Shown here: piece after piece, positions 10,813 through 31,976 of the stretch | Layout: the number at the start of each line of letters is the position of its first letter | Numbering within the stretch: position 1 is the stretch's first letter | NCBI GenBank assembly: GCA_963666215.2 | Contig: CAXWPL010000005.1 | Location: forward strand, 288,001-352,000 | Direction of reading: 5' to 3' | Length of the DNA stretch: 64,000 nt | Source of the DNA: Acidobacteriota bacterium | GTDB lineage: Bacteria > Acidobacteriota > UBA890 > WLXD01 | Notes under the pieces: generated by a model | The model's input: only the letters and a program-made list of their open reading frames with translations | What the model was told of the DNA's origin: nothing | Databases searched by the model: none | Translations under genes and position numbers: made by a program

Positions 10813-11838
10813 CTACATTCTTTCGGGCGCCAGCGCCCCCACCGAGCCCAACGTCATGCCCTCGCGGAATAGAAGCAGTAGCCCGATCGCGGCACCTGGC
10901 AAGAACACCAGTGCGTGGCTGATCAATGCGTAGGCGATCGCGCTGTCGTTGGGCACTCCCCACAGCGTCACGAGACCGATCTGGGCCGCCTTGTGGAAAC
11001 CGCCGATGCCCGCCGGTGTGGGGACGAGAACCCCGACCACCATGAGCGCCACCAGTGGGATGGTGGCGTACCAGGGCAGATCAATACCGAGCGCCCGGAA
11101 CAGCAAGAAGTACGTCAGGCAGGTGACGCTCCAGATTCCGACCGAGTGAAGTGCGATCGCGGCTACCAACCGCCCGTCTCGCAGCCCTGCGAGCCCGTCG
11201 ACAAACGACCTCCCGAGATCTTGCAGCTTGCCGGGCAGCAGCGCGAACAGCCGCCCTACGAGCCCCGATTCCAGATCGGGATCGTCTCCCTGCCGTCGCA
11301 CCCAGCGGAGCAGAATCGCGCCGCCGAGCAGCGAAACGAGCAGCGCCGCACTCCCGGTGACGCGCAATCCCGACATCACGCCCTGGGAATCGTCCCCGAG
11401 CATCGCGGGGGCCGGCAAGATGGCCAGATACGTCGCCAACAGCACGAGAACAGCGATCCCATCGAACGCCCGCTCGAGCACCACCGTGGCGATTGCCGCG
11501 CTCGCCGTCACGTCGTCTCGACGCGCTAGCAAGATCGGCTTGGCGACCTCGCCGATCCGCCCAGGCAGGACCACGGTGATCGCCCAGCCCATCAGCACGC
11601 ACGCCACGAGCCGGCCGAAAAGGGCGCGAAACCCGGGTAGCATGGGCGACAGGAGCAACCCCCACCGCCAGGCCCGATACACCTGAACGGAGACCGCCAA
11701 CACCACGGCAAGCAGCAGCAGCGACACGTCGGCGCTGCGAGCTTCGGCGAGTACCTGCTGCGGATCTGCGCTACGCAAGAACAGATAGAGCAGAACACAT
11801 GCGAGCAAGACTCCGACAACAGCCTGCGGTCGACGCAT
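10813..11838 (-). CDS. Lysylphosphatidylglycerol synthase TM / flippase-like membrane protein
   Basis: RAWRW, LPGRIGEV, VVLERAFD and PTPAGIGGFH motifs; multiple TM helices. Confidence 0.85.
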   Translation of the reverse strand: MRRPQAVVGVLLACVLLYLFLRSADPQQVLAEARSADVSLLLLAVVLAVSVQVYRAWRWGLLLSPMLPGFRALFGRLVACVLMGWAITVVLPGRIGEVAKPILLARRDDVTASAAIATVVLERAFDGIAVLVLLATYLAILPAPAMLGDDSQGVMSGLRVTGSAALLVSLLGGAILLRWVRRQGDDPDLESGLVGRLFALLPGKLQDLGRSFVDGLAGLRDGRLVAAIALHSVGIWSVTCLTYFLLFRALGIDLPWYATIPLVALMVVGVLVPTPAGIGGFHKAAQIGLVTLWGVPNDSAIAYALISHALVFLPGAAIGLLLLFREGMTLGSVGALAPERM

Positions 11839-12024
11839 GACCGGACACCCTTTGTTGACCCTGACCTATAAACCAACCCGAGCCCGCCGAATTCAAGCCT
11901 GACGAGCGCCGCACCCGCTAGGAAGCTAACTCATGCGAGAATCGGCGGCGCTCACACCCGTCGGCGGGAAACGCGCGGACGGGCTCCCGAATCGCAGATC
12001 AGCTTGTATCCAACCGAACACGCC

Positions 12025-12822
12025 ATGTCGCGCGAAGCGGAAACCGACATCTCGCAAGCGGTGGCGCTGATCGCCGCTGGGCGACGCCTCTATGAGCGCC
12101 GCATTCTGGCATCGTACGAGGGGAATCTGAGCGTGCGACTCGGCCACGGCGCGGGAAGTCCCGCGACTCCCGGAACGGGCGATGGCGAGCGTATCCTCAC
12201 CACGCCCAGCGGGGTGCACAAAGGGAGGCTCGAACCCGACGACCTCGTGCTCACCGACCTGTCTGGAACGCCGCTCAACGGCCGCGTCCCATCGTCGGAG
12301 CTGCCCATGCACCTGGCGGTGTACCAGGAGCGGCCCGACCTGCGAGCGATCGTCCACGCTCATCCTCCAACCGCCACGGGCTATGCGGTTGCCGGGCGTC
12401 GGCTGCCCACCGCGGCTCTGGCCGAGGTGGTAACGATGCTCGGCTGCGTGCCTGTCGCCCCGTACGGCACGCCATCCACGGATGAGCTCGCCGACGCGGT
12501 GCGCGAGCCGGTGCGCTCGTTCGACGTGCTGTTGCTGGCCAATCATGGCGCCCTCACCGCGGGCATCGACCTCGAGCAGGCCGAGGAGCGAATGCACCAA
12601 CTCGAGCACTTCGCCGAGATTGCCCTCGTCAGCCACCTTCTGGGAGGACCACAAAGCCTGTCAACGGAGCAGGTTGCACGGCTCTCCGAGCTGCGCGAGC
12701 GCGGTGGAGGACGCCCGGTGCCGCCGGCTTGCTACCCCTCGGACGACAAATCGGGCACCATTACCCTCACTCGCGCGCAGCTCGTCGAGCTCATTGCCGA
12801 CGCTGTGCGTACGATCCGCTGA
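12025..12822 (+). CDS. Class II aldolase (FucA/adducin family) with a C-terminal encapsulation-peptide-like helix
   Basis: EGNLS, TTPSG, PSSELPMH, IVHAHP and LANHG motifs; tail TLTRAQLVELIADAVRTIR after a Pro/Gly linker; precedes BMC shell genes. Confidence 0.9.
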   Translation: MSREAETDISQAVALIAAGRRLYERRILASYEGNLSVRLGHGAGSPATPGTGDGERILTTPSGVHKGRLEPDDLVLTDLSGTPLNGRVPSSELPMHLAVYQERPDLRAIVHAHPPTATGYAVAGRRLPTAALAEVVTMLGCVPVAPYGTPSTDELADAVREPVRSFDVLLLANHGALTAGIDLEQAEERMHQLEHFAEIALVSHLLGGPQSLSTEQVARLSELRERGGGRPVPPACYPSDDKSGTITLTRAQLVELIADAVRTIR

Positions 12823-18250: not shown

Positions 18251-19261
18251 TCAAACCATCTGCGTACGCCACAAATCGTGCAGATGCACGACTCCGGCGA
18301 ACGCTTCTGACGAATCGGTGACAATCAGAACCGTGATTCGACGCTCCTCGAGAAGCTTCAACGCTTCGGTGGCAAGCGCGTCGGCCTCGATGCTGACTGG
18401 CGAGCGTGTCATGCAAGCGTCCACCGAAAGTTCGTGCGGTGCGTCGGCGGAGCCTAGCCATCGGCGCAGGTCGCCGTCGGTGACGATACCGGCAACCTCG
18501 CCCGCTTCATCGACCACCACGGTCATCCCCAGACGCTTGGCGGAAATCTCGCGCACAGCGTCGCGCACACTCGATCCCGAGCGCACGAGGGGCACCTGCT
18601 CCCCCGAGTGCATGACGCTGTTCACTCGCAGCAGCCGGCGGCCCAGCGAGCCGCGAGGGTGAAACGACGCAAAGTCCTCGGGACCGAATCCACGCTCGTT
18701 GAGCAGCGCCATCGCCAGGGCATCACCGAGGGCGAGCGCCGCGGTCGTGCTGGCGGTGGGAGCGAGGCCCATGGGGCAGGCCTCGTTGTCGATAGCGACG
18801 TGCAACACCACGTCAGCCTCGCGAGCCAGGGTCGACATCGCCTCCCCGACCAGTGCAATCAAACCTACCTCGAGCCGGCGCATCGCCGGCAGGAGGGCAA
18901 CGAGCTCCTCGGTTTCGCCGCTGTGACTCAGAGCCACCACCACGTCGCCATCGACGATCATGCCGAGGTCGCCGTGGCCCGCCTCGGCTGGGTGCAGGAA
19001 AAAGGCCGGAGTCCCCGTCGAGGCCAGCGTCCCAGCGAGCTTCTTGCCGATAATTCCCGACTTGCCCATGCCGGTGCAGACGATGCGACCCGGGCACTTG
19101 AGCAACATCGTCAGCGCTGCGGACAGTGCCTCCTCGTCGAACTCGGCGGCGAGCTTCGTCAACGCCGCCGCCTCGGTGACAAGCACCTGCCTGGCGATCG
19201 CAAGGCTTTCCGCGCGACGGCCCACAAGTGGTGCCGCGTCAACTCCACTCGCCGGCTTCAT
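18251..19261 (-). CDS. kdsD: Arabinose-5-phosphate isomerase (KpsF/GutQ)
   Basis: GMGKSG, HPAEAGHGDLG, APTASTT and FHPRGSLG motifs; paired CBS domains. Confidence 0.95.
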   Translation of the reverse strand: MKPASGVDAAPLVGRRAESLAIARQVLVTEAAALTKLAAEFDEEALSAALTMLLKCPGRIVCTGMGKSGIIGKKLAGTLASTGTPAFFLHPAEAGHGDLGMIVDGDVVVALSHSGETEELVALLPAMRRLEVGLIALVGEAMSTLAREADVVLHVAIDNEACPMGLAPTASTTAALALGDALAMALLNERGFGPEDFASFHPRGSLGRRLLRVNSVMHSGEQVPLVRSGSSVRDAVREISAKRLGMTVVVDEAGEVAGIVTDGDLRRWLGSADAPHELSVDACMTRSPVSIEADALATEALKLLEERRITVLIVTDSSEAFAGVVHLHDLWRTQMV

Positions 19262-20091
19262 GAGCTCCTCCGAGCGCCATCGGCCTGTACGGCATCGTGC
19301 ACCCGCCGCAGCGACGCCAGAAGAAAATCGAGCTCTGCCAGCGGCAGCTGCGTTGTTGCGTCGCTGACCGCGCGCTCCGGCTCGTCATGGACTTCGATAA
19401 AAAGCACGTCCACGCCCGCCGCCACACCGGCGCGCGCCAGCAGAGCGGCAAACCGGCGCTCTCCTCCCGTTTCTCGTCCCAGGCTCGGCAGCTGCAGGCT
19501 GTGGGTCACATCAAGGACGACGGGGTAACCAAAGTCCTGCATGAACCCGAGCCCTTTGAAGTCGACGACCAGGTTGTTGTAGCCGAAGCTGGCTCCGCGC
19601 TCGGTAATCAGCAACCTCTCGTTGCCCGTCGAAGCGGCCTTCTCGACGACATTCCGCATATCCCAGGGGGCCAGGAACTGCCCCTTCTTGAGATTCACCA
19701 CACGGCCGCTCGCCGCTGCGGCGAGCACGAGATCGGTCTGCCTGCAAAGGAACGCCGGGATCTGAAGCACGTCGCACACCTCAGCCGCGGCTCCAACCTG
19801 TTCGACCGTGTGGACATCGGTGAGCACAGGCACGCCCACTTCAGAGCGAACCTCCGCGAGAATCTTCAGGCCAGCCTCGATGCCAGGGCCACGCGCCGAA
19901 TCGACCGCCGTGCGGTTAGCCTTGTCGAACGACGCCTTGAAGACGTATGCCAGGCCGCACGTCTCCGCTGCCGCCGACACGGCCTCGGCCATCCTCAAGC
20001 AATGGTCGCGCGACTCGATCGCGCACGGCCCCGCAATGAGCCCGAGCCCACCGTTGCCGAAAACAACGCTTTCGGAGACCTGCACACCCAT
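19258..20091 (-). CDS. kdsA: Kdo 8-phosphate synthase
   Basis: IAGPCAIE, FKASFDKANRT, QIPAFLCRQTDL and KKGQF motifs; GGAG RBS before ATG 20091. Confidence 0.96.
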   Translation of the reverse strand: MGVQVSESVVFGNGGLGLIAGPCAIESRDHCLRMAEAVSAAAETCGLAYVFKASFDKANRTAVDSARGPGIEAGLKILAEVRSEVGVPVLTDVHTVEQVGAAAEVCDVLQIPAFLCRQTDLVLAAAASGRVVNLKKGQFLAPWDMRNVVEKAASTGNERLLITERGASFGYNNLVVDFKGLGFMQDFGYPVVLDVTHSLQLPSLGRETGGERRFAALLARAGVAAGVDVLFIEVHDEPERAVSDATTQLPLAELDFLLASLRRVHDAVQADGARRSS

Positions 20092-20228
20092 CGATCGTGC
20101 TCCGTGCCGCCGGTCGCGAGACATCACGCGGCCGCAGCGGCTAGGCGAGCGTCCGAGGTATCGGACCGCGCCGAGGAAGTTGGGATCTGGGACCCATTGG
20201 CGAACCGGAGGGCGTGGAGTCGGCGGCC

Positions 20229-22040
<1,812 letters not shown>

Positions 22041-22895
22041 CTACACAGCGTCATCGTCTTCGATCAGCTTCCGCACCCGCTCCAGATCGGCGGGAGTGTC
22101 CACCCCCGGCGCCACCTCCGGAACTTCGTATGTCTGGATTTCTTCTCCCGCTTCGAGAACGCGCAGTTGCTCGAGACGTTCGCTACGCTCGAGCGAGGAC
22201 GGCGGAATTGTAGCCCACCGCAACAGGGCATTCCGTCGATACATGTAGATGCCGACGTGCAGCCAGTACGGCCCCGGGAGCGCCGGAGCTCCGTCGAACT
22301 CGACCACCGCCCCACCGCCGCCCTCTTCGCCCTGGTCACAGGCCAGCGGACGGCTGGCTCGCCAGACGTTTCGCGGGAAAGGCAGCGCCGCGCGGCTGAA
22401 GTAGAGCGCCCGACCGTTGTGGTCGACGACAACCTTGACGACGTTGGGGTCCCAAAGATCCGCTGCCGCCACGAGCGGCGCGCGCAGGGTGCCGTAGTCG
22501 TGCTCCGAAGCGGCAAAGCTACCCAGCGCGCGGCCCACCGCTTGAGCGTCGAACAGCGGCTCATCTCCTTGAATGTTCAACACCAGATCGGCATCGAGCG
22601 TCGCGGCAACGTGTGCCACCCGATCGGTCCCCGAAGCGAGGTCGCCGGGCGTTTCGACAGCTCGGGCACCCGCGGTCTGAGCCGCGTCGGCGATACGCTG
22701 ATCGTCGGTCGCCACCACGATCTCCTCGGGACCTTCGATGCCACGACAGCGCTCGATAACGTGGGCGATCATCGGGCGACCGGCGAGCAAGGCCAACGGC
22801 TTGCCGGGAAATCGTGTTGAGCCGTAGCGCGCAGGGATCACGGCGACGCAACTCAGGGCACCGACTTCCCCGGACGGCTGCGCGGCCGTGGGCAT
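22041..22895 (-). CDS. kdsB: CMP-Kdo synthetase
   Basis: IPARYGSTRFPGKPL, SGTDR, NIQGDEP, ALYFSRA and LEQLRVL motifs. Confidence 0.96.
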   Translation of the reverse strand: MPTAAQPSGEVGALSCVAVIPARYGSTRFPGKPLALLAGRPMIAHVIERCRGIEGPEEIVVATDDQRIADAAQTAGARAVETPGDLASGTDRVAHVAATLDADLVLNIQGDEPLFDAQAVGRALGSFAASEHDYGTLRAPLVAAADLWDPNVVKVVVDHNGRALYFSRAALPFPRNVWRASRPLACDQGEEGGGGAVVEFDGAPALPGPYWLHVGIYMYRRNALLRWATIPPSSLERSERLEQLRVLEAGEEIQTYEVPEVAPGVDTPADLERVRKLIEDDDAV

Positions 22896-22899
22896 CGAT

Positions 22900-23196
22900 C
22901 TAGCCGCGATCGCCGGCCGGCTCGGCGGCGCTGCCTACCGGCCCCGGGGGCAACATCTCTGCCAGCTCCGCCAGAGTGGCATCGAGTAGGGCCTCGGTTT
23001 GATCGTCCGGAATCACGACGTCGAAAACCTCCTCTGCCGCTACCAGCAGATCGATAATCTCCACCGAGGCAAGGCCCAGATCACTCTGCAGGCGAGACTC
23101 CGGGCCAATGTAGAGGGAGCGCTCTCGCAGCATCGGCTTGACCTCGTAGACGAGCTCACCCAGCCGCTGGATGACACCAGGATCGGCGGCGCTCAT
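22900..23196 (-). CDS. Stand-alone acyl carrier protein
   Basis: SDLGLASVEIIDLLVAAEEVFDVVIPD, with the phosphopantetheine Ser in an LGLAS variant. ATG overlaps the FAAL stop. Confidence 0.85.
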   Translation of the reverse strand: MSAADPGVIQRLGELVYEVKPMLRERSLYIGPESRLQSDLGLASVEIIDLLVAAEEVFDVVIPDDQTEALLDATLAELAEMLPPGPVGSAAEPAGDRG

Positions 23197-24977
23197 GGCA
23201 GCTCGCGGGCCATGTACATCGTGCGGCACTTCGCGCGGCACCGCTTACCGCTGGTGGTGCGCGGAATCCGACCGCGCTCCACCAGCACAACGTCGAGCAA
23301 CGGGAGGCCCATACCGTCGGCGACCGCCTCACGGATCGCCGCAGCGACGCCACTTCGGCGACCGTTGTCGGAGCCGGCGGGGGCGGCGGCACGCCCGTTA
23401 CCGTTCGCCGGTGAAGCGACGACAACGATCCCCTCTCGGTCCCCGTCGTCGACGCCGAAAGCCACAGCGCTGCCGTCGCGAACCTCTGCAAGGCCCTCGA
23501 CCACCCACTCGATATCTTGCGGGTAGATGTTGCGGCCGTCGACGATGATCAGCTCCTTGGCCCGCCCGGTCACGAACAACTCGCCGTTGCGAAAAAAGCC
23601 CAGGTCGCCGCTATGCAGCCAGCCGTCGCGAAGCACCTCCGCGGTGGCGCGCTCGTTGTCGAAGTACCCCGACATCACCGAGTCGCCCGCGATGACGATC
23701 TCGCCAATCGTGCCGTCGGGAACCGGGAGTCCGTAGCAATCGAGAATTCGAACCTGCATGGCGCCGATCGGCTCGCCAACCCCGACCAGCACCAGGTCGC
23801 CGCTAGCGTGACGCGTGGCTTCGCTTACAAGGCCCGCGTTCTCGAACGAATCGCGCTCGCAACGCAGCAACGTATGGCGGCGATCAACCTCTGATCCGGT
23901 GACCATGAGTCCGACTTCAGCGAGCCCGTACGCCGGCGTGAAAGCCGTGGGCGACATGCCGAGGGGCTCGAACGCGGCCGAGAACGACTCGAGCAGATAG
24001 GGGTCGATCGGCTCGGCACCAACAATCGCGATGCGCCAGGCGTCGAGTCGCTGGCCGCCTGGGCGGCCGCGACGCAGCAGGTGTCGGTAGCTGGCGTTGG
24101 GTCCGGCGGTAGCCGATACACGATGGCGCTCCATGATCTCGAGCCAGCGGCGAGGACGACGCAGAAAGCCGAAGGGAGTCGTCATCACCAGGCTCATACA
24201 CGCGGCGGTGGCCGACAGGAGGTTACCGATCAGCCCCATATCGTGGAACAACGGCAGCCATCCACCGCCAATATCTTCAGGCGTGACGCCCAGATGGTCG
24301 ACGATGGCTCGGACGTTGGCCATCACCTGGCGGTTCTCCAGCACAACACCGCGCGGCGCCGACGTGCTGCCGGAGGTGAACTGAATCAGGCAGACGCGGT
24401 TGGAAGCGTCGTCACCGGCCGGGGAGCCCTCGGACCACGGCGTCGACAATGCCGCGCCGCAGGCCGGCTGTAGCTCGTCAGCGCGCAGCAAGGCACCGCC
24501 CTCCAGGTCGGCTGCGGCCACCAGTTCGTCGTCAACTCGAGCGAGCGCCTCGTCCACCAGAACACGCCGCGGCCGAGCCACTCGCAAGACGCCGCTCGCG
24601 TGCCGAACGTAGCTCGCCAGTCGCCGACGGCCGACCGGGGTCGGCAGAATGCTCGGCTGCAGGCCTCCCATCTGCGCCGCGAAAAACGCGGTCACGAGGC
24701 CGCGTAGATCGCCCAGTAGCAGGGCGATCCGATCGCCCGACTGCAGGCCGGTCCCGCGCAGGCGCCCCGCCATCTCGCCAGCCTCGTCGAGTAGTTGCGG
24801 CCAGTTCTGCCGCCGTTCCTCGCCGCCATCGACGTAAATCAGCCCGCGCTCTGGCTCCAGGCGCGCGGCGCGCTCGAGCAGGTCCGAAATCGTGCGAGGC
24901 TGGTCGCTCGGCAAGGCCGACTCATCCGAGAGGTGTCGGCCGGGCGTTGCAAGGCTTGTGAGTCGGCTCGGGGTCAC
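23193..24977 (-). CDS. Fatty acyl-AMP ligase (FAAL)
   Basis: QFTSGSTSAPRG, WLPLFHDMGLIG, PAYGLAE followed by a FAAL-type insertion, SGDLGF, RTTSGK. Confidence 0.9.
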   Translation of the reverse strand: MTPSRLTSLATPGRHLSDESALPSDQPRTISDLLERAARLEPERGLIYVDGGEERRQNWPQLLDEAGEMAGRLRGTGLQSGDRIALLLGDLRGLVTAFFAAQMGGLQPSILPTPVGRRRLASYVRHASGVLRVARPRRVLVDEALARVDDELVAAADLEGGALLRADELQPACGAALSTPWSEGSPAGDDASNRVCLIQFTSGSTSAPRGVVLENRQVMANVRAIVDHLGVTPEDIGGGWLPLFHDMGLIGNLLSATAACMSLVMTTPFGFLRRPRRWLEIMERHRVSATAGPNASYRHLLRRGRPGGQRLDAWRIAIVGAEPIDPYLLESFSAAFEPLGMSPTAFTPAYGLAEVGLMVTGSEVDRRHTLLRCERDSFENAGLVSEATRHASGDLVLVGVGEPIGAMQVRILDCYGLPVPDGTIGEIVIAGDSVMSGYFDNERATAEVLRDGWLHSGDLGFFRNGELFVTGRAKELIIVDGRNIYPQDIEWVVEGLAEVRDGSAVAFGVDDGDREGIVVVASPANGNGRAAAPAGSDNGRRSGVAAAIREAVADGMGLPLLDVVLVERGRIPRTTSGKRCRAKCRTMYMARELP

Positions 24978-25055
24978 GCGCTGGCTCCGACGATTTCGCG
25001 TCAGTCTGACTCGGGGAACCCGGAACGACGTCGGTCCAAGGCGGGGTCGAGAAAC

Positions 25056-26228
25056 TCAGGCCACGCCGGCAGGGGCGATCGCGGCATGCCGAGCATAAAC
25101 CAACGACCAGGCGTCTTCCGTATCGGCGCCGGTGATCAGCAACCCGTGGTTGGTGAGCCCGAGGATCGTTCGGTCCGGATCCTCGGTCCGGCTCAGACCG
25201 TCGACGATCGAATCGCACAGCTCCACGGTGCCGCACGGGTAGTGGTTGTCGGTGTACACAATGTCGTCGAGCTCGGCGTGAATGTGGATCATCGAGCCAA
25301 TCTTCGGGTAGGCGTCGTAGATCACGGCGTGAATCGACGTATCGATTGAGGAGCGCGCCTCGTCGTACCCGGAAGGAACACGCAAATAGACCGCGCGCTC
25401 ATCCCTATCGAACCGATCGATGTAGACCAGGTCGCGGCCAATGACATCGAGGGCGGCCTTGTCGACACCTCGGCCGGTCATCCAGAAGCCCGTCCTACCG
25501 GGCTCGCGAGCGCTCATGTTGCCGTAGCTGATCTGCCGCAGCCCGAGCACCTTGAAGTAACGCCGCCGGGCGCGCCCCGACAGCCCGTCCAGCGGAACCG
25601 CCGGCGGCACCAGATCGAGACCGTCAAGGCGCCGCGCGACGTCCTGTATCGACGCCGTCACGGCTGTTCCGGCACAAAGATCGGCTGCCAGATCGGTGCT
25701 GACGACGTTGTCGTCGATGTAGGTAACGTCGGAGCGCCGCACGAGAGTGAGAAACAGCTCGTCGAACAGCTCTGCCGTTGGGCCGCACGATGAATCGGAA
25801 TCAGGCTCGCCTTCAGCGGCGACGCGCTTGGTGCCAACGACCGTCTCGATACCACGCTCCGGGGTCACCAGCGTTAGCAGCAGCTCGTTGGAGTCATCGC
25901 CGGTGCCCTCGACATCGATGGCCAGATTCGCCATCACCGTCAGACCGGCCTCGTAGGCGCGCACAACTTTCGCGCCTTCACCGGAGCCCGGCTCTCCGAT
26001 ATAGATCAGCCCGATGAAATCCTGGTAGCTGCGGCGCACGATTGGCAGCCGCGACGCCACCATCGGATCGTCCATCACAGCCAGCGTGACATCGGCCTGC
26101 TCCAGCGAATCGGCTGGAAGGTCGAGCAGCTCGTAGCGGTCGGACTCCGCGAAGCGCCAGCGCAACTCGGACGCGAAACCCTGCAACATCGGTGAGCTGC
26201 TGGGTGCGAACAGGCGGACCGTCTTCAT
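25056..26228 (-). CDS. Class II aldolase/adducin-fold protein with a long N-terminal domain of unknown function
   Basis: C-terminal YGNMSAR...SIDTSIH...MIHIH...YPCGT...LTNHGL (three-His metal site). Start could be up to 26330. Confidence 0.75.
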   Translation of the reverse strand: MKTVRLFAPSSSPMLQGFASELRWRFAESDRYELLDLPADSLEQADVTLAVMDDPMVASRLPIVRRSYQDFIGLIYIGEPGSGEGAKVVRAYEAGLTVMANLAIDVEGTGDDSNELLLTLVTPERGIETVVGTKRVAAEGEPDSDSSCGPTAELFDELFLTLVRRSDVTYIDDNVVSTDLAADLCAGTAVTASIQDVARRLDGLDLVPPAVPLDGLSGRARRRYFKVLGLRQISYGNMSAREPGRTGFWMTGRGVDKAALDVIGRDLVYIDRFDRDERAVYLRVPSGYDEARSSIDTSIHAVIYDAYPKIGSMIHIHAELDDIVYTDNHYPCGTVELCDSIVDGLSRTEDPDRTILGLTNHGLLITGADTEDAWSLVYARHAAIAPAGVA

Positions 26229-26373
26229 GTCGTCAAACCTAGGGAACTCGCTGCGAATCACCCGGTGCTGCCGGATGACCGCGGCCTCGTTTCGTTCGCG
26301 GAAGCGGGCCAACACCGACCGTACAATCAACAGGCATCGCGGTCGGCCCGGGGATGTGAAGCGGCAACAGTAT

Positions 26374-27324
26374 CTATTTCGGCATTCTCAGGCGCAATCC
26401 GCCTGGCAGCACTCGGAGCCTTCCGGGCAAGCGGCCCGGGATCTCCCCGTCGAGCTCCACGGCTACCGCCTCACCCTCGAGACTGAGCTCGGCGCACTCC
26501 AAATAGGTGACAGCCGGGTGATCGGTGCCCGTCCCTTTCATCAGGCGCGGCAGTTGCCGCAGCGCTTCAAAGGTCGGCATCGAGCCAATACAGGCGATCG
26601 CCAACAGCCCACTTCGCAGGTCGGCGTCCGGGCAGGGGCGCATGCCACCGCCGAAGAACGGACCGTTGCAGACCGAAAGGTTGAGCACGGCCGCGGAGTG
26701 GGCGTCACCCTCGTCGGCCGCCAAGCTCAGCTCGACGAGTTGTGGGCGCAGCAACTCCAATGCCGACGCGATGACGTAGGCCGGCGCGCCCATCGCGCCG
26801 AGCAGCCGCGAACTCGCCACACGTTCGGCAACCGTCGGGCCGAGTCCGATGTTGGCGGCGTTGAGGAAGTACTTGGTAATTCGACCATGATCCGTACTGA
26901 GGTCAGCTACCCCCACATCGACGAGCATCTCGTAGCCCTGCGGCAGGCGGCGCAGGTTGTCCAGCGGGTCGGGCGACAGCCCGAGTCCACGAGCGAAGTC
27001 GCAGCCGGTCCCCATTGGCACGTGGGCCAACGTCGGCGCGTCCTGCGACTCGGCCCCCAACAGCCCGTTGACGACCTCGTGCGCCGTGCCATCGCCGCCA
27101 ATTGCGACAACCAGGTCCACGCTGCTGGCCGCTGCCGTTCGCGCCAGGTCGGTGGCATGGCCGGGCCCGTTGGTCAATTCAACCCGAACGTCATCGCGTG
27201 ATTGGCGATCGGAGCCGGAATCGCCGGCGGCGGGCCAGCCGTTGAGAATCTCTCTCACCGACGCGACGCGCTTGCCCGCACGCCCGCTGGCAGCGACGGG
27301 GTTCAGGATGACAACCGTGCTCAT
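26374..27324 (-). CDS. Diacylglycerol/sphingosine kinase family lipid kinase (YegS/DgkB-like)
   Basis: ILNPVA, GGDGTAHEVVNG, PMGTGCDFAR, NGPFFGGG and ELDGE motifs. Confidence 0.92.
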   Translation of the reverse strand: MSTVVILNPVAASGRAGKRVASVREILNGWPAAGDSGSDRQSRDDVRVELTNGPGHATDLARTAAASSVDLVVAIGGDGTAHEVVNGLLGAESQDAPTLAHVPMGTGCDFARGLGLSPDPLDNLRRLPQGYEMLVDVGVADLSTDHGRITKYFLNAANIGLGPTVAERVASSRLLGAMGAPAYVIASALELLRPQLVELSLAADEGDAHSAAVLNLSVCNGPFFGGGMRPCPDADLRSGLLAIACIGSMPTFEALRQLPRLMKGTGTDHPAVTYLECAELSLEGEAVAVELDGEIPGRLPGRLRVLPGGLRLRMPK

Positions 27325-27378
27325 GATCTCCTCGCGACCACGCAACATCCGAGCGCTCGTGGCTGCTCTCGCCCGCTC

Positions 27379-27408
27379 TTGACGACACGACAGGCGGAAA
27401 CCTATCGT
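27379..27408 (+). promoter_or_regulatory. Putative sigma70 promoter TTGACG-N18-TATCGT driving the ino1 leader
   Basis: TTGACG at 27379-27384 and TATCGT at 27403-27408, immediately before the structured region. Confidence 0.55.
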
Positions 27409-27414
27409 AGCTCC

Positions 27415-27754
27415 GACCGCGGTCGTGTGAACGACGGCGTGGCGAGCGCGTTGCGTGGGAAGAACGCGTGTGCGTGGTCAATACATTCGGGAAGCCATCA
27501 TTCATACCTATCGATCATCCTCCTGCTGATGGTTCCTCTTGGGCTTCGGCCCTCGTAGGCCAATCAACCAAGAACAGCCCGCGCGCTCGCCACAGCAAGC
27601 CGTCGGATTTTTCCCTCTGGGCAAGGGTTCCCGTGCGCCTGGCGCCGGGGCCAGCGCTGTCGCGGCCCGTCGATTGCCTGGAAAGAGCCCTCCGTGCGAA
27701 CGGAGAAGATCCTCTTGGGCTGCGCACGGGCCGAGGCCGCGCGTAGGGGGAACT
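27415..27754 (+). ncRNA. Candidate structured 5' leader or small RNA upstream of ino1
   Basis: 12-bp stem 27439-50/27582-93 plus 7-bp stem 27432-38/27599-605; GGGC-UUCG-GCCC and UCCGU-GCGA-ACGGA tetraloop hairpins; 9-bp stem 27630-38/27722-30. Confidence 0.5.
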
Positions 27755-28927
27755 ATGCGTCCGATCCGGATCGCAATCGTCGGCGTGGGCAACTGCGCCA
27801 GCTCGTTGCTGCAGGGAATCGAGTGGTACCGCCGCCGGTCCACCGACTTCGCTACGCGCGACGCGGTGCGCGAAGAGCACCTCGGCCTGATGAACTACGA
27901 GATCGGCGGCTATCGGCCGTTCGATATCGAGGTGGTCGCCGCATTCGACGTCGACGGCCGCAAGGTCGGCCTGCCCGTCGAAGAGACGATTTTTTCGCCG
28001 CCCAACAACACGATGGTGCTGCAGCGTGATCTGCCCGCCACCGAGGTGTTCGTGCAGATGTCGCCCGTTCTCGATGGGGTGGCCGAGCACATGGCTGATT
28101 ATCCGGACCGGCAGACATTCGTTGTTGCCGACGAGCCGGCCGTCGATGTGGAGCGAGTGCTGCGCGCCAGCGGCGCCGAGATCCTGCTCAACTACCTGCC
28201 CGTCGGCTCCGAGGCGGCGACTCGATTCTATGCCGAGTGCGCGCTCAACACCGGAACGTCGTTCATCAACTGCATTCCGGTATTCATCGTGTCCGACGAG
28301 GGCTGGGGCCGGCGCTTCGCCGAGTCCGGAATCCCCTGCGTCGGAGACGAGATCAAGGCACAGGTGGGCGCCACGATCACGCACCGCGCGCTAGCTCGAC
28401 TCATGGTCGAGCGCGGCGCCCGGCTTGACCGCACCTATCAGCTCAACACCGGTGGCAACACCGACTTCCTCAACATGCTCAACCGCGACCGACTGGCGTC
28501 GAAGAAGATCAGCAAGACGGCGGCGGTGGCCTCACAGCTGCCGTATGAGATGTCGCCCGACGACATCCACATCGGCCCCTCCGATTTCGTGCCGTGGCAG
28601 AAGGACAACAAGCTCTGCTTTCTGCGACTCGAGGGGCGCGGCTTTGCCGGCTTCCCGGTGGAGATGGAGCTGCGACTGTCGGTGGAGGACTCGCCCAACA
28701 GCGCCGGCTGCTGCGTCGATGCCATCCGCGCCTGCAAGCTGGCGCGCGATAGAGGCATCGGAGGACCTCTCGAGGACATCTCGGCGTACCTCATGAAGCA
28801 CCCGCCACGACAGATGACCGACGACCATGCCCGACGACGAGTCGAGGCCTTCGTTAGCCACTCTCCACCGACTGACCTACCTTCGCCCGACAGCGATCGC
28901 GTGGACCTGGCGCACGCGACGGCGTAG
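27755..28927 (+). CDS. ino1: Inositol-3-phosphate synthase
   Basis: IAIVGVGNCASSLLQG, NYLPVGSE, GDEIKAQVGAT, YQLNTGGNTDFLNM, SKKISKT and EDSPNSAG motifs. Confidence 0.95.
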   Translation: MRPIRIAIVGVGNCASSLLQGIEWYRRRSTDFATRDAVREEHLGLMNYEIGGYRPFDIEVVAAFDVDGRKVGLPVEETIFSPPNNTMVLQRDLPATEVFVQMSPVLDGVAEHMADYPDRQTFVVADEPAVDVERVLRASGAEILLNYLPVGSEAATRFYAECALNTGTSFINCIPVFIVSDEGWGRRFAESGIPCVGDEIKAQVGATITHRALARLMVERGARLDRTYQLNTGGNTDFLNMLNRDRLASKKISKTAAVASQLPYEMSPDDIHIGPSDFVPWQKDNKLCFLRLEGRGFAGFPVEMELRLSVEDSPNSAGCCVDAIRACKLARDRGIGGPLEDISAYLMKHPPRQMTDDHARRRVEAFVSHSPPTDLPSPDSDRVDLAHATA

Positions 28928-29067
28928 TCTCCCGGGGGCCGTCAAAGGGGCGCTGGCCGCCCCTTCGGCGGTCAGCCGAGAACCGCCGACGTCTACCAGT
29001 TATCCGATGCCTCTCGAGATCCATTAGGGGCTCAGCATCGAGCCTCTCGCGAGGCCTCCGACACAGC

Positions 29068-29664
29068 ATGATCAGTCACTCCATCGCACGCTTCTTCCAG
29101 GCGCTGAAGGCCGCTATCGCCAAGGCGGTCAGTTCCATTGGAATCCATCCGAACTTCATCACCGTCTCATCGCTGTTCCCGATGGTGATCGCCGCCTGGG
29201 CTCTTTCCGAAGGACGTCTGGTGACCGCCGGGCTCTGGATCATCGCCGGCGGCGCGCTCGACCTGATCGACGGCGCGGTGGCGCGGCTCTCGGGCAAGGC
29301 GACGCCATTCGGTGGCGTGCTCGATTCAGTTGTCGACCGAGCCTCCGACACGCTTCTGTACGTGGGCGCGGTCCTCTACTTCGACCGCATCGGCGAGCCG
29401 CTCTACGTCGGTCTCAGCGCCATCGCCCTGGGCGGAGCGCTGGCCGTCTCGTACACCCGGGCGCGCGCCGAGAACGTCATTCCCGAATGCGAGGTCGGCT
29501 TCTTCGAGCGCGGCGAGCGCATCGTGCTGCTGTTGCTCGGATTACTGGTCAACCGCCTGCCCCAAGCCATCCTGTTGCTGGCGGTGCTATCGTGGCTCAC
29601 GACCGTGCAGCGATTGATCCATGCTCACCGCCACATCAGCGCGACAACAGCTCAGGATCGATGA
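29068..29664 (+). CDS. CDP-alcohol phosphatidyltransferase (phosphatidylinositol-phosphate synthase-like)
   Basis: DLIDGAVAR...G..LD...DR signature; SYTRARAE and GFFERGER; adjacent to ino1. Confidence 0.92.
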   Translation: MISHSIARFFQALKAAIAKAVSSIGIHPNFITVSSLFPMVIAAWALSEGRLVTAGLWIIAGGALDLIDGAVARLSGKATPFGGVLDSVVDRASDTLLYVGAVLYFDRIGEPLYVGLSAIALGGALAVSYTRARAENVIPECEVGFFERGERIVLLLLGLLVNRLPQAILLLAVLSWLTTVQRLIHAHRHISATTAQDR

Positions 29665-29734
29665 CCGCAACTTCAACGCCGGGAGGGCGGCCGCCAAGAA
29701 CGGCCAACCAGAGGCATTACCAAGGATCCTCCTG

Positions 29735-30664
29735 ATGACTCAGATGCGCCTATTCGGGGCCCTCGTGGTGACGCTGTTCGCATCGGCCATCTTCACGTCG
29801 GCCAGCCCTCGCGGGTCGACGCCACGGTCGGCGGTTGCGGCTGCACAGAAGTTCTACGTCGCCGACGGCACGGGTTCTGGCAGCAAGGTCGCAGGTGATT
29901 GCGACTCCAATCCGAGCGAATTGTCGGTGCTCAGCTCAGGCTCGGGCAAGCTGAAGAAGATCGGCGACATCGACTTTAACCGGGTTTCCGCGATCGATGT
30001 TGGACTCAACGGCAAGCTCTACGGCGTGGGCGAGAAGAGCAACTGCGACATCGCCTTCATCGAGATCAACACGGACAACGGTCAGGGCACCGAGATCAGG
30101 ACAATCGGGAACGCGCAGGACGACGACAACATCGAAGCGGTCACCGACATGACAGTGCGGAACGCCAAGGAGTTCCTGCTGCACACGTTCGCGTTCAGCC
30201 CCCCGGTTGAGGACCTTCGCCGGATCAAGATCAAGAAAGGCAAGCTCAAGAAGGGGCTGGGTGTAGCCAGTGCCGATTGCTGTGGCGAGGGCCTCGCGCA
30301 CGTATCCAAGAAAGCTGCCGGCCGGTTGGGTTTCGAACAGCCGGCCGCAGTGACACACAACCCAACGCCAACGCCGAAAGAGCCGAAGGGCCTGTGGATT
30401 GTCAACGGCACGGCTGCGGAGCGCTACAAGAAAAAGGGCGCACCGGTGTCGTCGGCACCGATGGACTATGGACCCTTCGGCAAGGGTGCGCGGGTGAACG
30501 CCATGGACCGGTGCCGGGACCAAAAAGTCTACGGGCTGGTCAACGTCGGCGACGGCGGCCCCGAGCGTGAGCCCGGCCTGGTACTTCTCGACCTGGCAAC
30601 TGCCACGTTGCAGCTCGTGGTGCCCGAAGTCGTCGGCGGTGACGCGCTGGCCTGCATCGACTAG
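29735..30664 (+). CDS. Putative secreted Lys/Cys-rich hypothetical protein
   Basis: Signal-peptide-like N-terminus (MRLFGALVVTLFASAIFTSA); beta-strand-rich repeats (KLYGV, KVYGLV); coding-like GC3. Confidence 0.65.
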   Translation: MTQMRLFGALVVTLFASAIFTSASPRGSTPRSAVAAAQKFYVADGTGSGSKVAGDCDSNPSELSVLSSGSGKLKKIGDIDFNRVSAIDVGLNGKLYGVGEKSNCDIAFIEINTDNGQGTEIRTIGNAQDDDNIEAVTDMTVRNAKEFLLHTFAFSPPVEDLRRIKIKKGKLKKGLGVASADCCGEGLAHVSKKAAGRLGFEQPAAVTHNPTPTPKEPKGLWIVNGTAAERYKKKGAPVSSAPMDYGPFGKGARVNAMDRCRDQKVYGLVNVGDGGPEREPGLVLLDLATATLQLVVPEVVGGDALACID

Positions 30665-30709
30665 CTTGATCCAACGGCGCCAGATCGCCTCGACACGCTG
30701 GGGGCGAAG

Positions 30710-31684
30710 CTAGGCGGGTAGCGGGGCCGCCATGTAATGCTGGGGCTTGCGCTGATCGATCGCCGACGCGCGCCGCACACACCCGACGGTGCACGACGGC
30801 GCGCAGCCCTTGGGCGTGTGGTACTCGCGCTCGAGGTCGGCGCGGGTGTACTCGAGTAAGGCGGTACCCGGCTCGCCCCGACGCTGGCTGCAGTACGAGA
30901 CGTCGCCGAACTCATCGATGTACAGGTAGCGAGCGCCAGCGCGGCACTTCCAGTTGGAGATGCCGTCGCTCAGCATGTCGCGCTCCCAGCCCTCGCCGAA
31001 GCCATGAAAAAAGCTCTTCTTCGAATTGCCATGGATCTCGTGGTACAGCTCCGGCAGATCGGCACCGAGAAGCCCCGCGTCGAGCTGGCCCTCGTCGTCG
31101 TGCATCAACCCGACGGTCATGTAGAAGCCGAGCTCGCGAACTCCCGCAACGACCTCACGAGTTTCTTCCGGCGAGCAAGAGCCGAGCACCGCGTTGACGT
31201 TGACCGCGAACCTGGCGTGCTCGACCAAGAGCTTCAAGCGCCCCTTGAGACGCGACCAGGACTTCTGCGAGATCTCGTTGGGTTCGACATTGTCGATGGA
31301 GATCTGCAGCAGCGTCAGCCGGGCCTTGTTGAGGCGCTCGATCCAGGTCTTGGTGAGCGGGTAGCCGTTGGTGATCGAGGTGCACACCATGCCGAGCTTC
31401 ACCGAATGCGCAATCACCTCATCGACCTGCGGATGAATCATCGGCTCACCACCCGTGAGCGTCACCGACACGGTGCCGAGCTCACGCAGCTTGTCGAGCC
31501 TCTGTTTCAGAACGTCGATCGGGATCGGCGCCGAGACCTGGTCGTACTCGTTGCAGTAACCGCACGAGAGATTGCAGCGACGCGTGACGACGATCTGCGT
31601 CTGCAGCGGGACGTACGGATCTCTGAGGGCGCGCAGAACACCGCGCGTCGCACCGAGAAACGGCTGGGGTATGAGTCGCGCCAT
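30710..31684 (-). CDS. Radical SAM protein with a C-terminal auxiliary Cys cluster
   Basis: CNLSCGYC, TLTGGEP and ITNG motifs; C-terminal CRAG...YC...CAPSCTVGC. Confidence 0.9.
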   Translation of the reverse strand: MARLIPQPFLGATRGVLRALRDPYVPLQTQIVVTRRCNLSCGYCNEYDQVSAPIPIDVLKQRLDKLRELGTVSVTLTGGEPMIHPQVDEVIAHSVKLGMVCTSITNGYPLTKTWIERLNKARLTLLQISIDNVEPNEISQKSWSRLKGRLKLLVEHARFAVNVNAVLGSCSPEETREVVAGVRELGFYMTVGLMHDDEGQLDAGLLGADLPELYHEIHGNSKKSFFHGFGEGWERDMLSDGISNWKCRAGARYLYIDEFGDVSYCSQRRGEPGTALLEYTRADLEREYHTPKGCAPSCTVGCVRRASAIDQRKPQHYMAAPLPA

Positions 31685-31976
31685 GGTGTTGCGCCCTTGC
31701 CGCCGCAGCTGCGGCATGCGGTACCGGCCAATCGAGTCGGCCGGTCAGGCTCCGGGGAGCAGAAAGAGTAGCAGGATGATCAGAGCGCAGATGACGTCGT
31801 ATTGCCACGAACCACGGGGCCAGTTGAGGAACAGCCAACGTCCGGTCGAACCCCACATCGCCAACCCTCGGCGGGTGTCGGTTTGCGCGCGCTCTGTCAT
31901 CGGATCGAATGCTTTCTCGGCGGCTTCTCGTACAGGTGCGGGTACGCGAGTCTATACGTTGGTCGCCAGATGCAGA

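Follow-up and report, generated by a model that had tools for sequence, protein, structure and literature searches.

What do six genes that lie together in an acidobacterial genome make, and do they make it together? In a 64,000-nucleotide stretch of an Acidobacteriota bacterium (contig CAXWPL010000005.1, positions 288,001 to 352,000; this whole stretch is called the window), the minus strand carries genes for a lipid kinase of the DAGK/YegS type (KIN), a protein of aldolase fold (ALD), a fatty acyl-AMP ligase-like protein (FAAL) and a dedicated acyl carrier protein (ACP). Divergent from them on the plus strand are ino1 and a gene for a CDP-alcohol phosphatidyltransferase that resembles phosphatidylinositol-phosphate synthases (PIPS-like). 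A preliminary description, made from the sequence, proposed that the six may form one pathway to an inositol-phosphate lipid. Its map was accurate: all six genes are where it placed them, the ATG of ACP overlaps the TGA of FAAL, the divergent control region is exactly 430 nt, and no polyketide synthase or nonribosomal peptide synthetase domain is found in any of the 49 window open reading frames (ORFs) scanned, the unscanned ones all being shorter than 200 aa. The region is, however, a composite of three layers, a backbone, a cassette and an extra ino1, and not one six-gene pathway. Its proposed functional core is the pair formed by KIN and ALD, which recurs in several phyla and points to an undescribed lipid step.

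The layering emerges from the relatives. The order to which the window genome (4.65 Mb, 91.7% complete) belongs is represented by 26 species genomes in two families, its own (the window genome and 10 others) and a sister family of 15. ALD is present in the window genome, in none of the 10 others of its family and in 13 of the 15 of the sister family (14/26 overall). FAAL, also present in the window genome and in none of those 10, occurs in 14 of the sister family's 15, one being a fragment at a contig end. The PIPS-like gene is distributed otherwise: it is in the window genome, in all 10 others of the family and in 12/15 of the sister family (23/26 overall), including 12 of 12 genomes of at least 90% completeness. 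The gene order KIN-ALD-FAAL-ACP-KdsB-PyrG-KdsA(-KdsD) is kept in 13/13 related acidobacterial loci, with ALD and FAAL at 50–62% identity; 12 of these loci were matched by contig and coordinates to sister-family genomes. In these loci the PIPS-like gene stands divergent to KIN-ALD-FAAL-ACP wherever the upstream flank is long enough to show it (10/10; L005, L009 and L011 end too early).

In the window genome's own family, all four loci examined have a polyprenyl synthase gene and the PIPS-like gene divergent from KIN-kdsB-pyrG-kdsA-kdsD, with the kinase directly before kdsB and without ALD, FAAL or ACP. The order of pyrG, kdsA and kdsD is kept in L001–L013 and L098–L101. (The polyprenyl synthase next door is IspB-like and was not taken as a member of the system.) Because the own-family loci lack the cassette while the sister-family loci carry it at the same place, the shared backbone is the PIPS-like gene divergent from KIN-kdsB-pyrG-kdsA-kdsD, a housekeeping envelope-lipid locus, and ALD-FAAL-ACP is a three-gene indel between KIN and kdsB.

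Beyond the order, it is the kinase that keeps company with ALD. A scan for ALD relatives with one genome per species gave 300 loci, and neighbourhoods were counted in the best 80: 14 acidobacterial, 30 from Bacillota, 20 from Ignavibacteriota, Bacteroidota and Aminicenantes (the Ignavibacteriota group), 11 from Chloroflexota and Thermomicrobiota, and others. By tblastn, 55/80 of them have a DAGK-type kinase no farther than about 8 kb from ALD, and ORF clustering finds one in 48/80; among the 45 loci whose flanks reach 7 kb or more on either side, the tblastn count is 33. These kinases pass the lipid-kinase model TIGR00147 (149–203 bits against a cut-off of 118.65). Since there is one such kinase in the 4.65 Mb of the window genome, chance adjacency of kinase and ALD is estimated at well under 1%. 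The preliminary description had proposed examining the neighbourhoods of the aldolase-fold protein for co-occurring ino1, PIPS and kinase genes. The kinase does co-occur across phyla; no ino1 or PIPS gene was found within 7 kb of the ALD-kinase pairs of Bacillota, Ignavibacteriota and Chloroflexota.

Gene order around the pair differs between groups. In Thermomicrobia it is kinase-ALD, in Thermoactinomycetaceae ALD, a short-chain dehydrogenase/reductase (SDR) and then the kinase, and in Bacillaceae the kinase with a PlsC-like acyltransferase is divergent from ALD with a Tdh-like zinc-dependent alcohol dehydrogenase (Zn-ADH). The 30 Bacillota loci contain a Zn-ADH or SDR in 28 cases (Zn-ADH 22, SDR 7), the kinase in 21, the PlsC-like acyltransferase in 10 and a phosphodiesterase in 10, together with transferases of glycolipid type, GT28 in 9 and GT4 in 7. 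In the Ignavibacteriota group the operon is tight and consists of the kinase, a PEMT-like plus BtaA-like fusion protein (DUF3419), a 371-aa protein with a weak GNAT match, a LysA-like pyridoxal phosphate-dependent (PLP) decarboxylase, ALD, FtsX and an ABC ATPase; of its 20 loci, 17 have DUF3419, 17 the PLP decarboxylase, 16 FtsX, 12 ABC and 15 the kinase. A search of the literature (open full text, with most subscription journals outside its coverage) returned nothing on a kinase-aldolase pairing, on fusions of the DFP domain with an aldolase, or on acidobacterial inositol lipids.

The operon of the Ignavibacteriota group merits mention in its own right. It is seen at L019:4496-12760 and at 16 like loci (L018, L021, L025, L026, L029–L031, L039, L049, L050, L052, L053, L056, L058, L070, L075), and looks like an undescribed pathway for a betaine-lipid or aminolipid head group.

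ALD has two domains, the first of which was absent from the preliminary description. The protein is 390 aa long and not 424, because its MKTVR start matches that of its homologues. The AlphaFold model (pLDDT 86.6) shows both domains. Residues 181–390 have their best structural matches (VIA) in FucA (4c25, Z 17.4, rmsd 2.7, 164 residues aligned), YgbL (6voq, Z 16.2, titled in the PDB a putative aldolase/epimerase/decarboxylase) and AraD (Z 15.1); Foldseek gives E 8.9e-8 to AraD 1jdi. The PF00596 match exceeds the cut-off of 22.2 bits and spans only profile positions 9–92 of 183. In a profile search the top PDB match is AraD 1k0w (E 8.7e-5), in which YGNlS, SvD..H and HiH of ALD align with WGNVS, SSD..H and HTH of AraD.

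Two alignments covering four phyla show the motifs YGNxS, SxD...H, HxH, YPCGT and NHG to be invariant, and N237, S239, D296, H300, H315, H317 and H361 are unchanged in 16/16 and 17/17 sequences. The residues of AraD and FucA that match these motifs are presumably the metal ligands (Asp/Glu and three His) and the GNxS phosphate-binding site. With the fold and Pfam domain as well as the metal-ligand and phosphate-site motifs, ALD belongs to the class II aldolase/adducin superfamily. It reaches no NCBIfam equivalog, scoring 27.8 bits against the 137 required for MtnB, 25.4 against 300 for RU1P aldolase and 16.3 against 389 for AraD. The window genome has a single copy. At 10813–12822 in the window, a class II aldolase of the canonical single-domain kind (272 aa, PF00596 matched across the whole domain at 155 bits) is divergent from a flippase-like/LPG_synthase_TM membrane protein; the sequence class of this aldolase is unrelated to that of ALD. 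LPG-synthase homologues are noted near Bacteroides inositol clusters in PMC9246714.

The N-terminal domain of ALD (residues 1–168) has CoaB (2gk4/5int) as its best structural match (VIA Z 11.2), flavodoxin-like folds following at Z 8–9. A profile search of 1.84 billion representatives with ALD shows a small family, with 1435 matches at E<=0.001, of which 345 reach E<=1e-10 and 101 reach E<=1e-30. Among what it found are DFP+Aldolase_II fusions (P0146, P0149, P0168, P0173, P0176 and P0177) with a true CoaB/DFP domain (PF04127, 85–177 bits) and, in one case, a GNAT domain at the C-terminus as well. Their aldolase halves carry the private motifs of ALD (GTYGNMS, ITGRNVxK, PSIDAAIH, HIH, YPCG, KHG), and hhalign joins the two families with a probability of 100% (E 2.3e-41, ALD columns 60–360). 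Because the fusions share these motifs and hhalign connects both families, the likeness of the first domain to CoaB is homology and not chance. ALD itself has no PF04127 match and has lost both the N-terminal nucleotide motif of the fusions (TAGGTxExID.VR.I.N.SxG.LG) and their FK(L) lysine, so that it does not count as a CoaB/DFP protein. Its first domain is probably a degenerate, non-catalytic remnant with no ligase activity, and the fusions are the likely ancestral form of the architecture. The fusion family was not found in five ALD-carrying genomes or in 201 Chloroflexota genomes, in a search that had no positive control, and a scan of one metagenome gave ordinary CoaB-domain matches only (query residues about 5–295). 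The same profile search also found a decarboxylase-ALD fusion, P0048 (843 aa), which matches the gene order of the Ignavibacteriota-group operon.

For the kinase the family is clear. KIN starts with the ATG at 27324, with GAGGAG just before it, and its protein scores 86.4 bits for DAGK_cat PF00781 (cut-off 23.6), 83.8 for YegS_C PF19279 (cut-off 27) and 149 for TIGR00147. GGDGT, the defining motif of the DAGK/YegS/BmrU family, is present as G76 G77 D78 G79 T80 and invariant in 16/16 aligned kinases; domain scores and motif together make KIN a member of that family. No equivalog model is reached, the scores being 118.8 bits against 284 for YegS and 110 against 342 for diacylglycerol (DAG) kinase. 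By family KIN is a soluble lipid kinase, for which phosphorylation of a lipid is predicted. It is the sole DAGK_cat gene in the genome, where no DgkA-type kinase was found and where there is one CdsA.

In a kinase tree all kinases of the order fall in one clade (100/99). Those of the sister family group in a subclade (98/97) to which the window kinase does not belong, its own position being otherwise unresolved; acquisition of the cassette by recent transfer from a member of the sister family was considered and, given this placement, is not supported. Kinases of the genomes without ALD are on long branches (tips 0.19–1.22, internal 0.37–0.53); ten sister-family kinases have tips of 0.025–0.49 and the window kinase one of 0.56. 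These long branches would fit a relaxed coupling with ALD. A complex prediction for KIN with ALD scored 0.00 and was used neither for nor against their association.

The remaining cassette genes are those for acyl activation. FAAL has the adenylate-forming domain PF00501, and its best NCBIfam match is the FAAL model PRK09192 (384 bits, below the cut-off of 600). Its top PDB matches are all FAALs: 3pbk at 251 bits, FadD32 at 203 and 3kxw at 202. The domain and these proven nearest relatives place it with the FAALs, in which a specific insertion blocks ligation to CoA. For ACP no Pfam match was found at E<=0.001, and with the best NCBIfam acyl carrier model it scores 32.6 bits where 70 are required; the serine for phosphopantetheine attachment, which in carrier proteins opens helix II, is kept in 13/13 homologues, in LQS(D/E)xGL(A/T/S)S(V/T)EIIDL. 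FAAL is the one copy of its type in the genome and ACP is likewise single. Among the retrieved loci, ALD has FAAL and ACP at its side in the acidobacterial order alone.

Could this acyl supply serve a ceramide backbone, as had been suggested? The genome has three genes of the oxoamine-synthase family, and the best candidate for a serine palmitoyltransferase (SPT), at G000:C1:278993-280273, scores 436 bits with NF047600, for which the cut-off is 640. This SPT-like gene is found in 10/10 of the other own-family genomes and in 1/15 of the sister family (there a 39% paralogue), and the 380-aa protein encoded next to it in 10/10 and 0/15 respectively. Its profile is the inverse of that of FAAL and ALD (FAAL 0/10 and 14/15), the window genome, which has both, being the exception; 13 cassette-bearing genomes are without an SPT-like gene by this query. 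The candidate therefore neither reaches the SPT equivalog nor is distributed with FAAL-ACP. Because the gene profiles are inverse, FAAL-ACP does not serve the SPT-like pathway, and the ceramide proposal fails on these profiles.

The SPT-like locus itself (L115, G000:C1:276761-285286) is outside the window. There the SPT-like gene, the gene of the unknown 380-aa protein and that of an SDR/epimerase-like reductase are beside genes for an HpnM-like protein, an outer-membrane factor and an HpnN-like RND transporter. It is a candidate sphingolipid-like or aminolipid cluster.

The inositol genes belong to other layers than the cassette. INO1 is a synthase of myo-inositol 1-phosphate (MIPS): its PF01658 score is far above the cut-off of 27 bits, and it scores 423 bits with the actinobacterial equivalog TIGR03450, below the cut-off of 638. 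Its type occurs in 2/26 genomes, the window genome, with two copies, and G015 (locus L001). That this meant absence of ino1 from the others was ruled out by a Pfam search, which found an Inos-1-P_synth gene of a different, long type (ORFs of 467–523 aa) elsewhere in 5/5 relatives tested. The 2/26 spread is the distribution of a paralogue and not a loss of inositol synthesis. The window genome has three Inos-1-P_synth genes; the third, at C5:557298, is a 449-aa open frame that was taken, on length alone, as being of the relatives' type.

The second copy of the window type is part of another inositol locus outside the window (L102, G000:C5:770000-786000). This ino1 is 58% identical to the window copy and is accompanied by genes for an inositol monophosphatase and a fused NTP-transferase/CDP-alcohol transferase (567 aa). 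Two DDE transposase genes, each of 376 aa, flank the locus, which may therefore be a composite mobile island; it resembles the di-myo-inositol-phosphate or CDP-inositol pathways.

As for the PIPS-like protein, its translation contains DxxDGxxAR...GxxxDxxxD, the CDP-alcohol phosphotransferase motif as given in PMC9246714. Its scores, 154.7 bits with NF040950 (cut-off 180) and 115.2 with NF045883 (cut-off 170), are below both the PIPS and the archaetidylinositol-phosphate synthase equivalogs. All its top PDB matches are PIP synthases, at 53–63 bits: 6h53, 5d92 and 6wm5, from M. tuberculosis, Renibacterium and M. kansasii. It is plausible that inositol phospholipids are synthesised across the order independently of the cassette.

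What, then, might the pair do? The reading to which we would give a little less than an even chance is a phosphorylate-then-transform module whose target is a lipid-linked alcohol, with a lineage-specific source of acyl chains in FAAL-ACP. The kinase would phosphorylate a primary hydroxyl of a lipid or lipid-linked diol or polyol, the simplest candidates being acceptors of the diacyl- or monoacyl-glycerol type. ALD, as a metal-dependent, AraD-like enzyme with a catalytically dead CoaB-like domain, would grip the phosphate as a handle and convert the ketol or diol next to it by epimerisation, aldol or retro-aldol reaction, dehydration or decarboxylation, in the way that pairs of a kinase and a class II aldolase-fold enzyme treat sugars. 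The adjacent Zn-ADH or SDR could supply the keto group in Bacillota, and FAAL-ACP a dedicated acyl chain in the acidobacterial lineage. The product would be an accessory membrane lipid, not a ceramide, and one that is not needed for the inositol phospholipid synthesis of the order. One concrete candidate is a substrate of the acyl-dihydroxyacetone-phosphate type, because it fits the set of kinase, ketoreductase and PlsC-like acyltransferase. A bolder form, in which kinase and ALD are an undescribed two-enzyme lipid step in at least four phyla that builds or remodels a backbone or head group via a phosphorylated ketol, is fed here by FAAL-ACP and may hand its product to the PIPS-like enzyme to give a new class of envelope lipid, is doubtful.

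Several facts weigh against the phosphorylate-then-transform module. Of the 80 ALD loci 25 are without a kinase nearby, 12 of the 45 with full flanks among them, and kinases of the KIN type exist without ALD; coupling of the two is for these reasons not obligatory. The acidobacterial operon has no oxidoreductase, and in the cassette there is no acyltransferase or other evident acceptor of acyl-ACP. FAAL, ACP, INO1 and the PIPS-like protein all score below NCBIfam equivalog cut-offs. The 13 related acidobacterial loci are from one order and so are not independent. KIN, as the genome's sole candidate DAG kinase, may be a housekeeping enzyme with ALD an unrelated neighbour, and we know of no studied enzyme, substrate or product in the ALD family.

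In the principal rival KIN would be no more than a housekeeping DAG kinase, turning DAG back into phosphatidic acid for CDP-DAG, phosphatidylinositol (PI) and the envelope, and ALD-FAAL-ACP a separate insert on the same promoter, supplying for example a special acyl chain for lipid A or lipopolysaccharide as the AcpXL systems of rhizobia do. The kinase is indeed single-copy with no DgkA found, it immediately precedes kdsB where the cassette is missing, only 4 nt separate the ACP stop and kdsB, and the Kdo genes here are the only copies. It is nevertheless unlikely: in other phyla, Gram-positive Bacillota among them, ALD is tied to the same kinase family without Kdo genes in the neighbourhood, and there is no lipid A acyltransferase in or beside the cassette. 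Quite unlikely too is a reading in which the substrate of kinase and ALD is small and soluble, such as a polyol, a sugar acid or a natural-product intermediate, and not a lipid. The combined logic of dehydrogenase, kinase and aldolase-fold protein is familiar from the oxo-tetronate kinase/decarboxylase, fuculose and ribulose pathways, and VlmJ of valanimycin synthesis is a DAGK-like kinase that acts on a small molecule. The oxidoreductase beside ALD in 28/30 Bacillota loci, the place of YgbL among the best structural matches and the lack of membrane segments in ALD and kinase, as noticed by eye, are all in keeping with it, though the neighbours are mostly lipid enzymes (PlsC-like, glycolipid-type GT28/GT4, BtaA/PEMT-like, lysophospholipase-like), the kinases pass the lipid-kinase model and the acidobacterial form is joined to FAAL-ACP.

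Improbable is the pathway with which the locus was first credited, where FAAL-ACP would feed an unusual backbone, ceramide-like or a long-chain diol or polyol, ALD make its C-C bond, the kinase phosphorylate it and the PIPS-like enzyme add inositol phosphate. Part of its basis stands: in all 10 sister-family loci with enough flank the PIPS-like gene stands divergent to the cassette, the enzyme carries the catalytic motif and is closest, among solved structures, to PIP synthases, ino1 is adjacent in the window and in L001, and an SPT-like cluster does exist elsewhere in the genome. The functional union of the six genes does not stand with it. The PIPS-like gene remains divergent from KIN in the 4/4 loci that lack ALD, FAAL and ACP; the adjacent ino1 is of a type confined to two of the 26 genomes, with another ino1 elsewhere in all five relatives tested; the SPT-like gene and its partner, in 10/10 own-family and 0–1/15 sister-family genomes, are distributed inversely to FAAL and ALD; and the ALD-kinase pairs of other phyla manage without ino1 or PIPS within 7 kb.

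The features of the locus are collected in Table 1. The operon that KIN opens runs on past ACP into the Kdo and CTP genes kdsB-pyrG-kdsA-kdsD, with kdsB beginning 4 nt beyond the ACP stop, an extension that the preliminary description does not have; pyrG, kdsA and kdsD (18251..21935) are its housekeeping tail. For kdsB, the product is the sole match above the family cut-off in the genome.

Table 1. Genes and intergenic region of the locus, in window coordinates
Feature	Position	Strand	Evidence
KIN, DAGK/YegS-type lipid kinase, first gene of the operon	26374-27324	-	PF00781/PF19279/TIGR00147
ALD, two-domain aldolase-fold protein, 390 aa	25056-26228	-	PF00596 59.2 bits
FAAL-like fatty acyl-AMP ligase	23193-24977	-	PF00501 183 bits
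ACP, dedicated, FAAL-coupled	22900-23196	-	ATGA overlap, conserved serine
kdsB (CMP-Kdo synthetase)	22041-22895	-	TIGR00466 191.7 bits (cut-off 155.2)
pyrG	20229-21935	-	CTP_synth_N 419 bits
kdsA	ORF 19258-20301	-	DAHP_synth_1 214 bits
kdsD	18251-19261	-	SIS+CBS
Divergent intergenic region, 430 nt	27325-27754		sequence read
ino1, extra paralogue	27755-28927	+	PF01658 115.7 bits
PIPS-like CDP-alcohol phosphatidyltransferase	29068-29664	+	PF01066 60.5 bits

The 430-nt gap extends from the ATG of KIN to the start of ino1 (MRPIRIAIVG). It contains two overlapping, divergent promoter-like sites at 27379–27431; as two were found against 1.1 expected, this is not significant, and the promoter and terminator scans were altogether at background level. 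An Rfam scan of 22000–31000 gave no match beyond one at chance level (E 0.19) and none in the gap.

On the far side of the PIPS-like gene a 347-aa ORF (29621–30664, plus strand) probably starts at an internal Met before a hydrophobic, signal-like stretch; it has no family match, and no homologue was found in the 17 related loci searched. Beyond it, at 30710–31717 on the minus strand, is the gene of a 335-aa radical SAM protein, not assignable to a subfamily, with conserved counterparts in L098 (74% identity) and in L001 (66%). In the sister family the loci have instead a Fer2-like protein and a radical SAM protein of 695–748 aa that carries an HMPTM zinc ribbon. DNA near-identical to 22000–29700 of the window (0.8–0.99 of sampled words) is present in 11 public runs under several organism labels, none of them recorded as RNA; these runs belong to five of the nine coded studies in which some part of the stretch occurs.

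Some enzymes of bacterial membrane-lipid pathways are still missing, among them those for unusual backbones, for ether bonds and for head-group remodelling under phosphate stress. With its clear catalytic signature and its repeated genomic tie to lipid kinases and other lipid enzymes, the ALD family offers a concrete starting point that can be tested, also in Bacillota that can be cultured. That ino1, the PIPS-like gene and FAAL-ACP adjoin here reflects a layered history and not one pathway, which corrects a tempting over-reading of the locus.

Pairs of a sugar kinase and a class II aldolase-fold enzyme are well known: FucK/FucA, AraB/AraD, RhaB/RhaD, MtnK/MtnB and OtnK/OtnC. As in these, the kinase gene here adjoins a gene for a metal-dependent protein of that fold (Z 15–17), whose phosphate and metal motifs align with those of AraD. 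The kinase, however, is of the DAGK/YegS lipid-kinase family, ALD has an additional degenerate CoaB-like domain, and the neighbours are lipid genes. Dedicated pairs of an ACP with an acyl-ACP synthetase or FAAL feed lipid pathways in the sphingolipid genes of Caulobacter and in rhizobial AcpXL systems. The stand-alone FAAL coupled to a small ACP with a conserved serine, in a window without polyketide or nonribosomal peptide synthases, is alike; it differs in having no linked serine palmitoyltransferase or lipid A acyltransferase, the SPT-like cluster of the order being anti-correlated with it. The first domain of ALD shares its fold with CoaB (phosphopantothenoylcysteine synthetase, PF04127) at Z 11.2 and is homologous to the DFP+Aldolase_II fusions, but without the glycine-rich nucleotide motif and FK(L) lysine of these proteins. 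PI synthesis of the mycobacterial and Bacteroides type, by MIPS, PIP synthase and PIP phosphatase as set out in PMC9246714, has its counterpart here in ino1 and a CDP-alcohol transferase with the shared motif. In comparison with that scheme, the PIPS-like protein is below the PIPS and archaetidylinositol-phosphate synthase cut-offs and no PIP phosphatase was identified here; ino1 is lineage-specific, and the constant partner of the PIPS-like gene in the order is the kinase-Kdo operon and not ino1.

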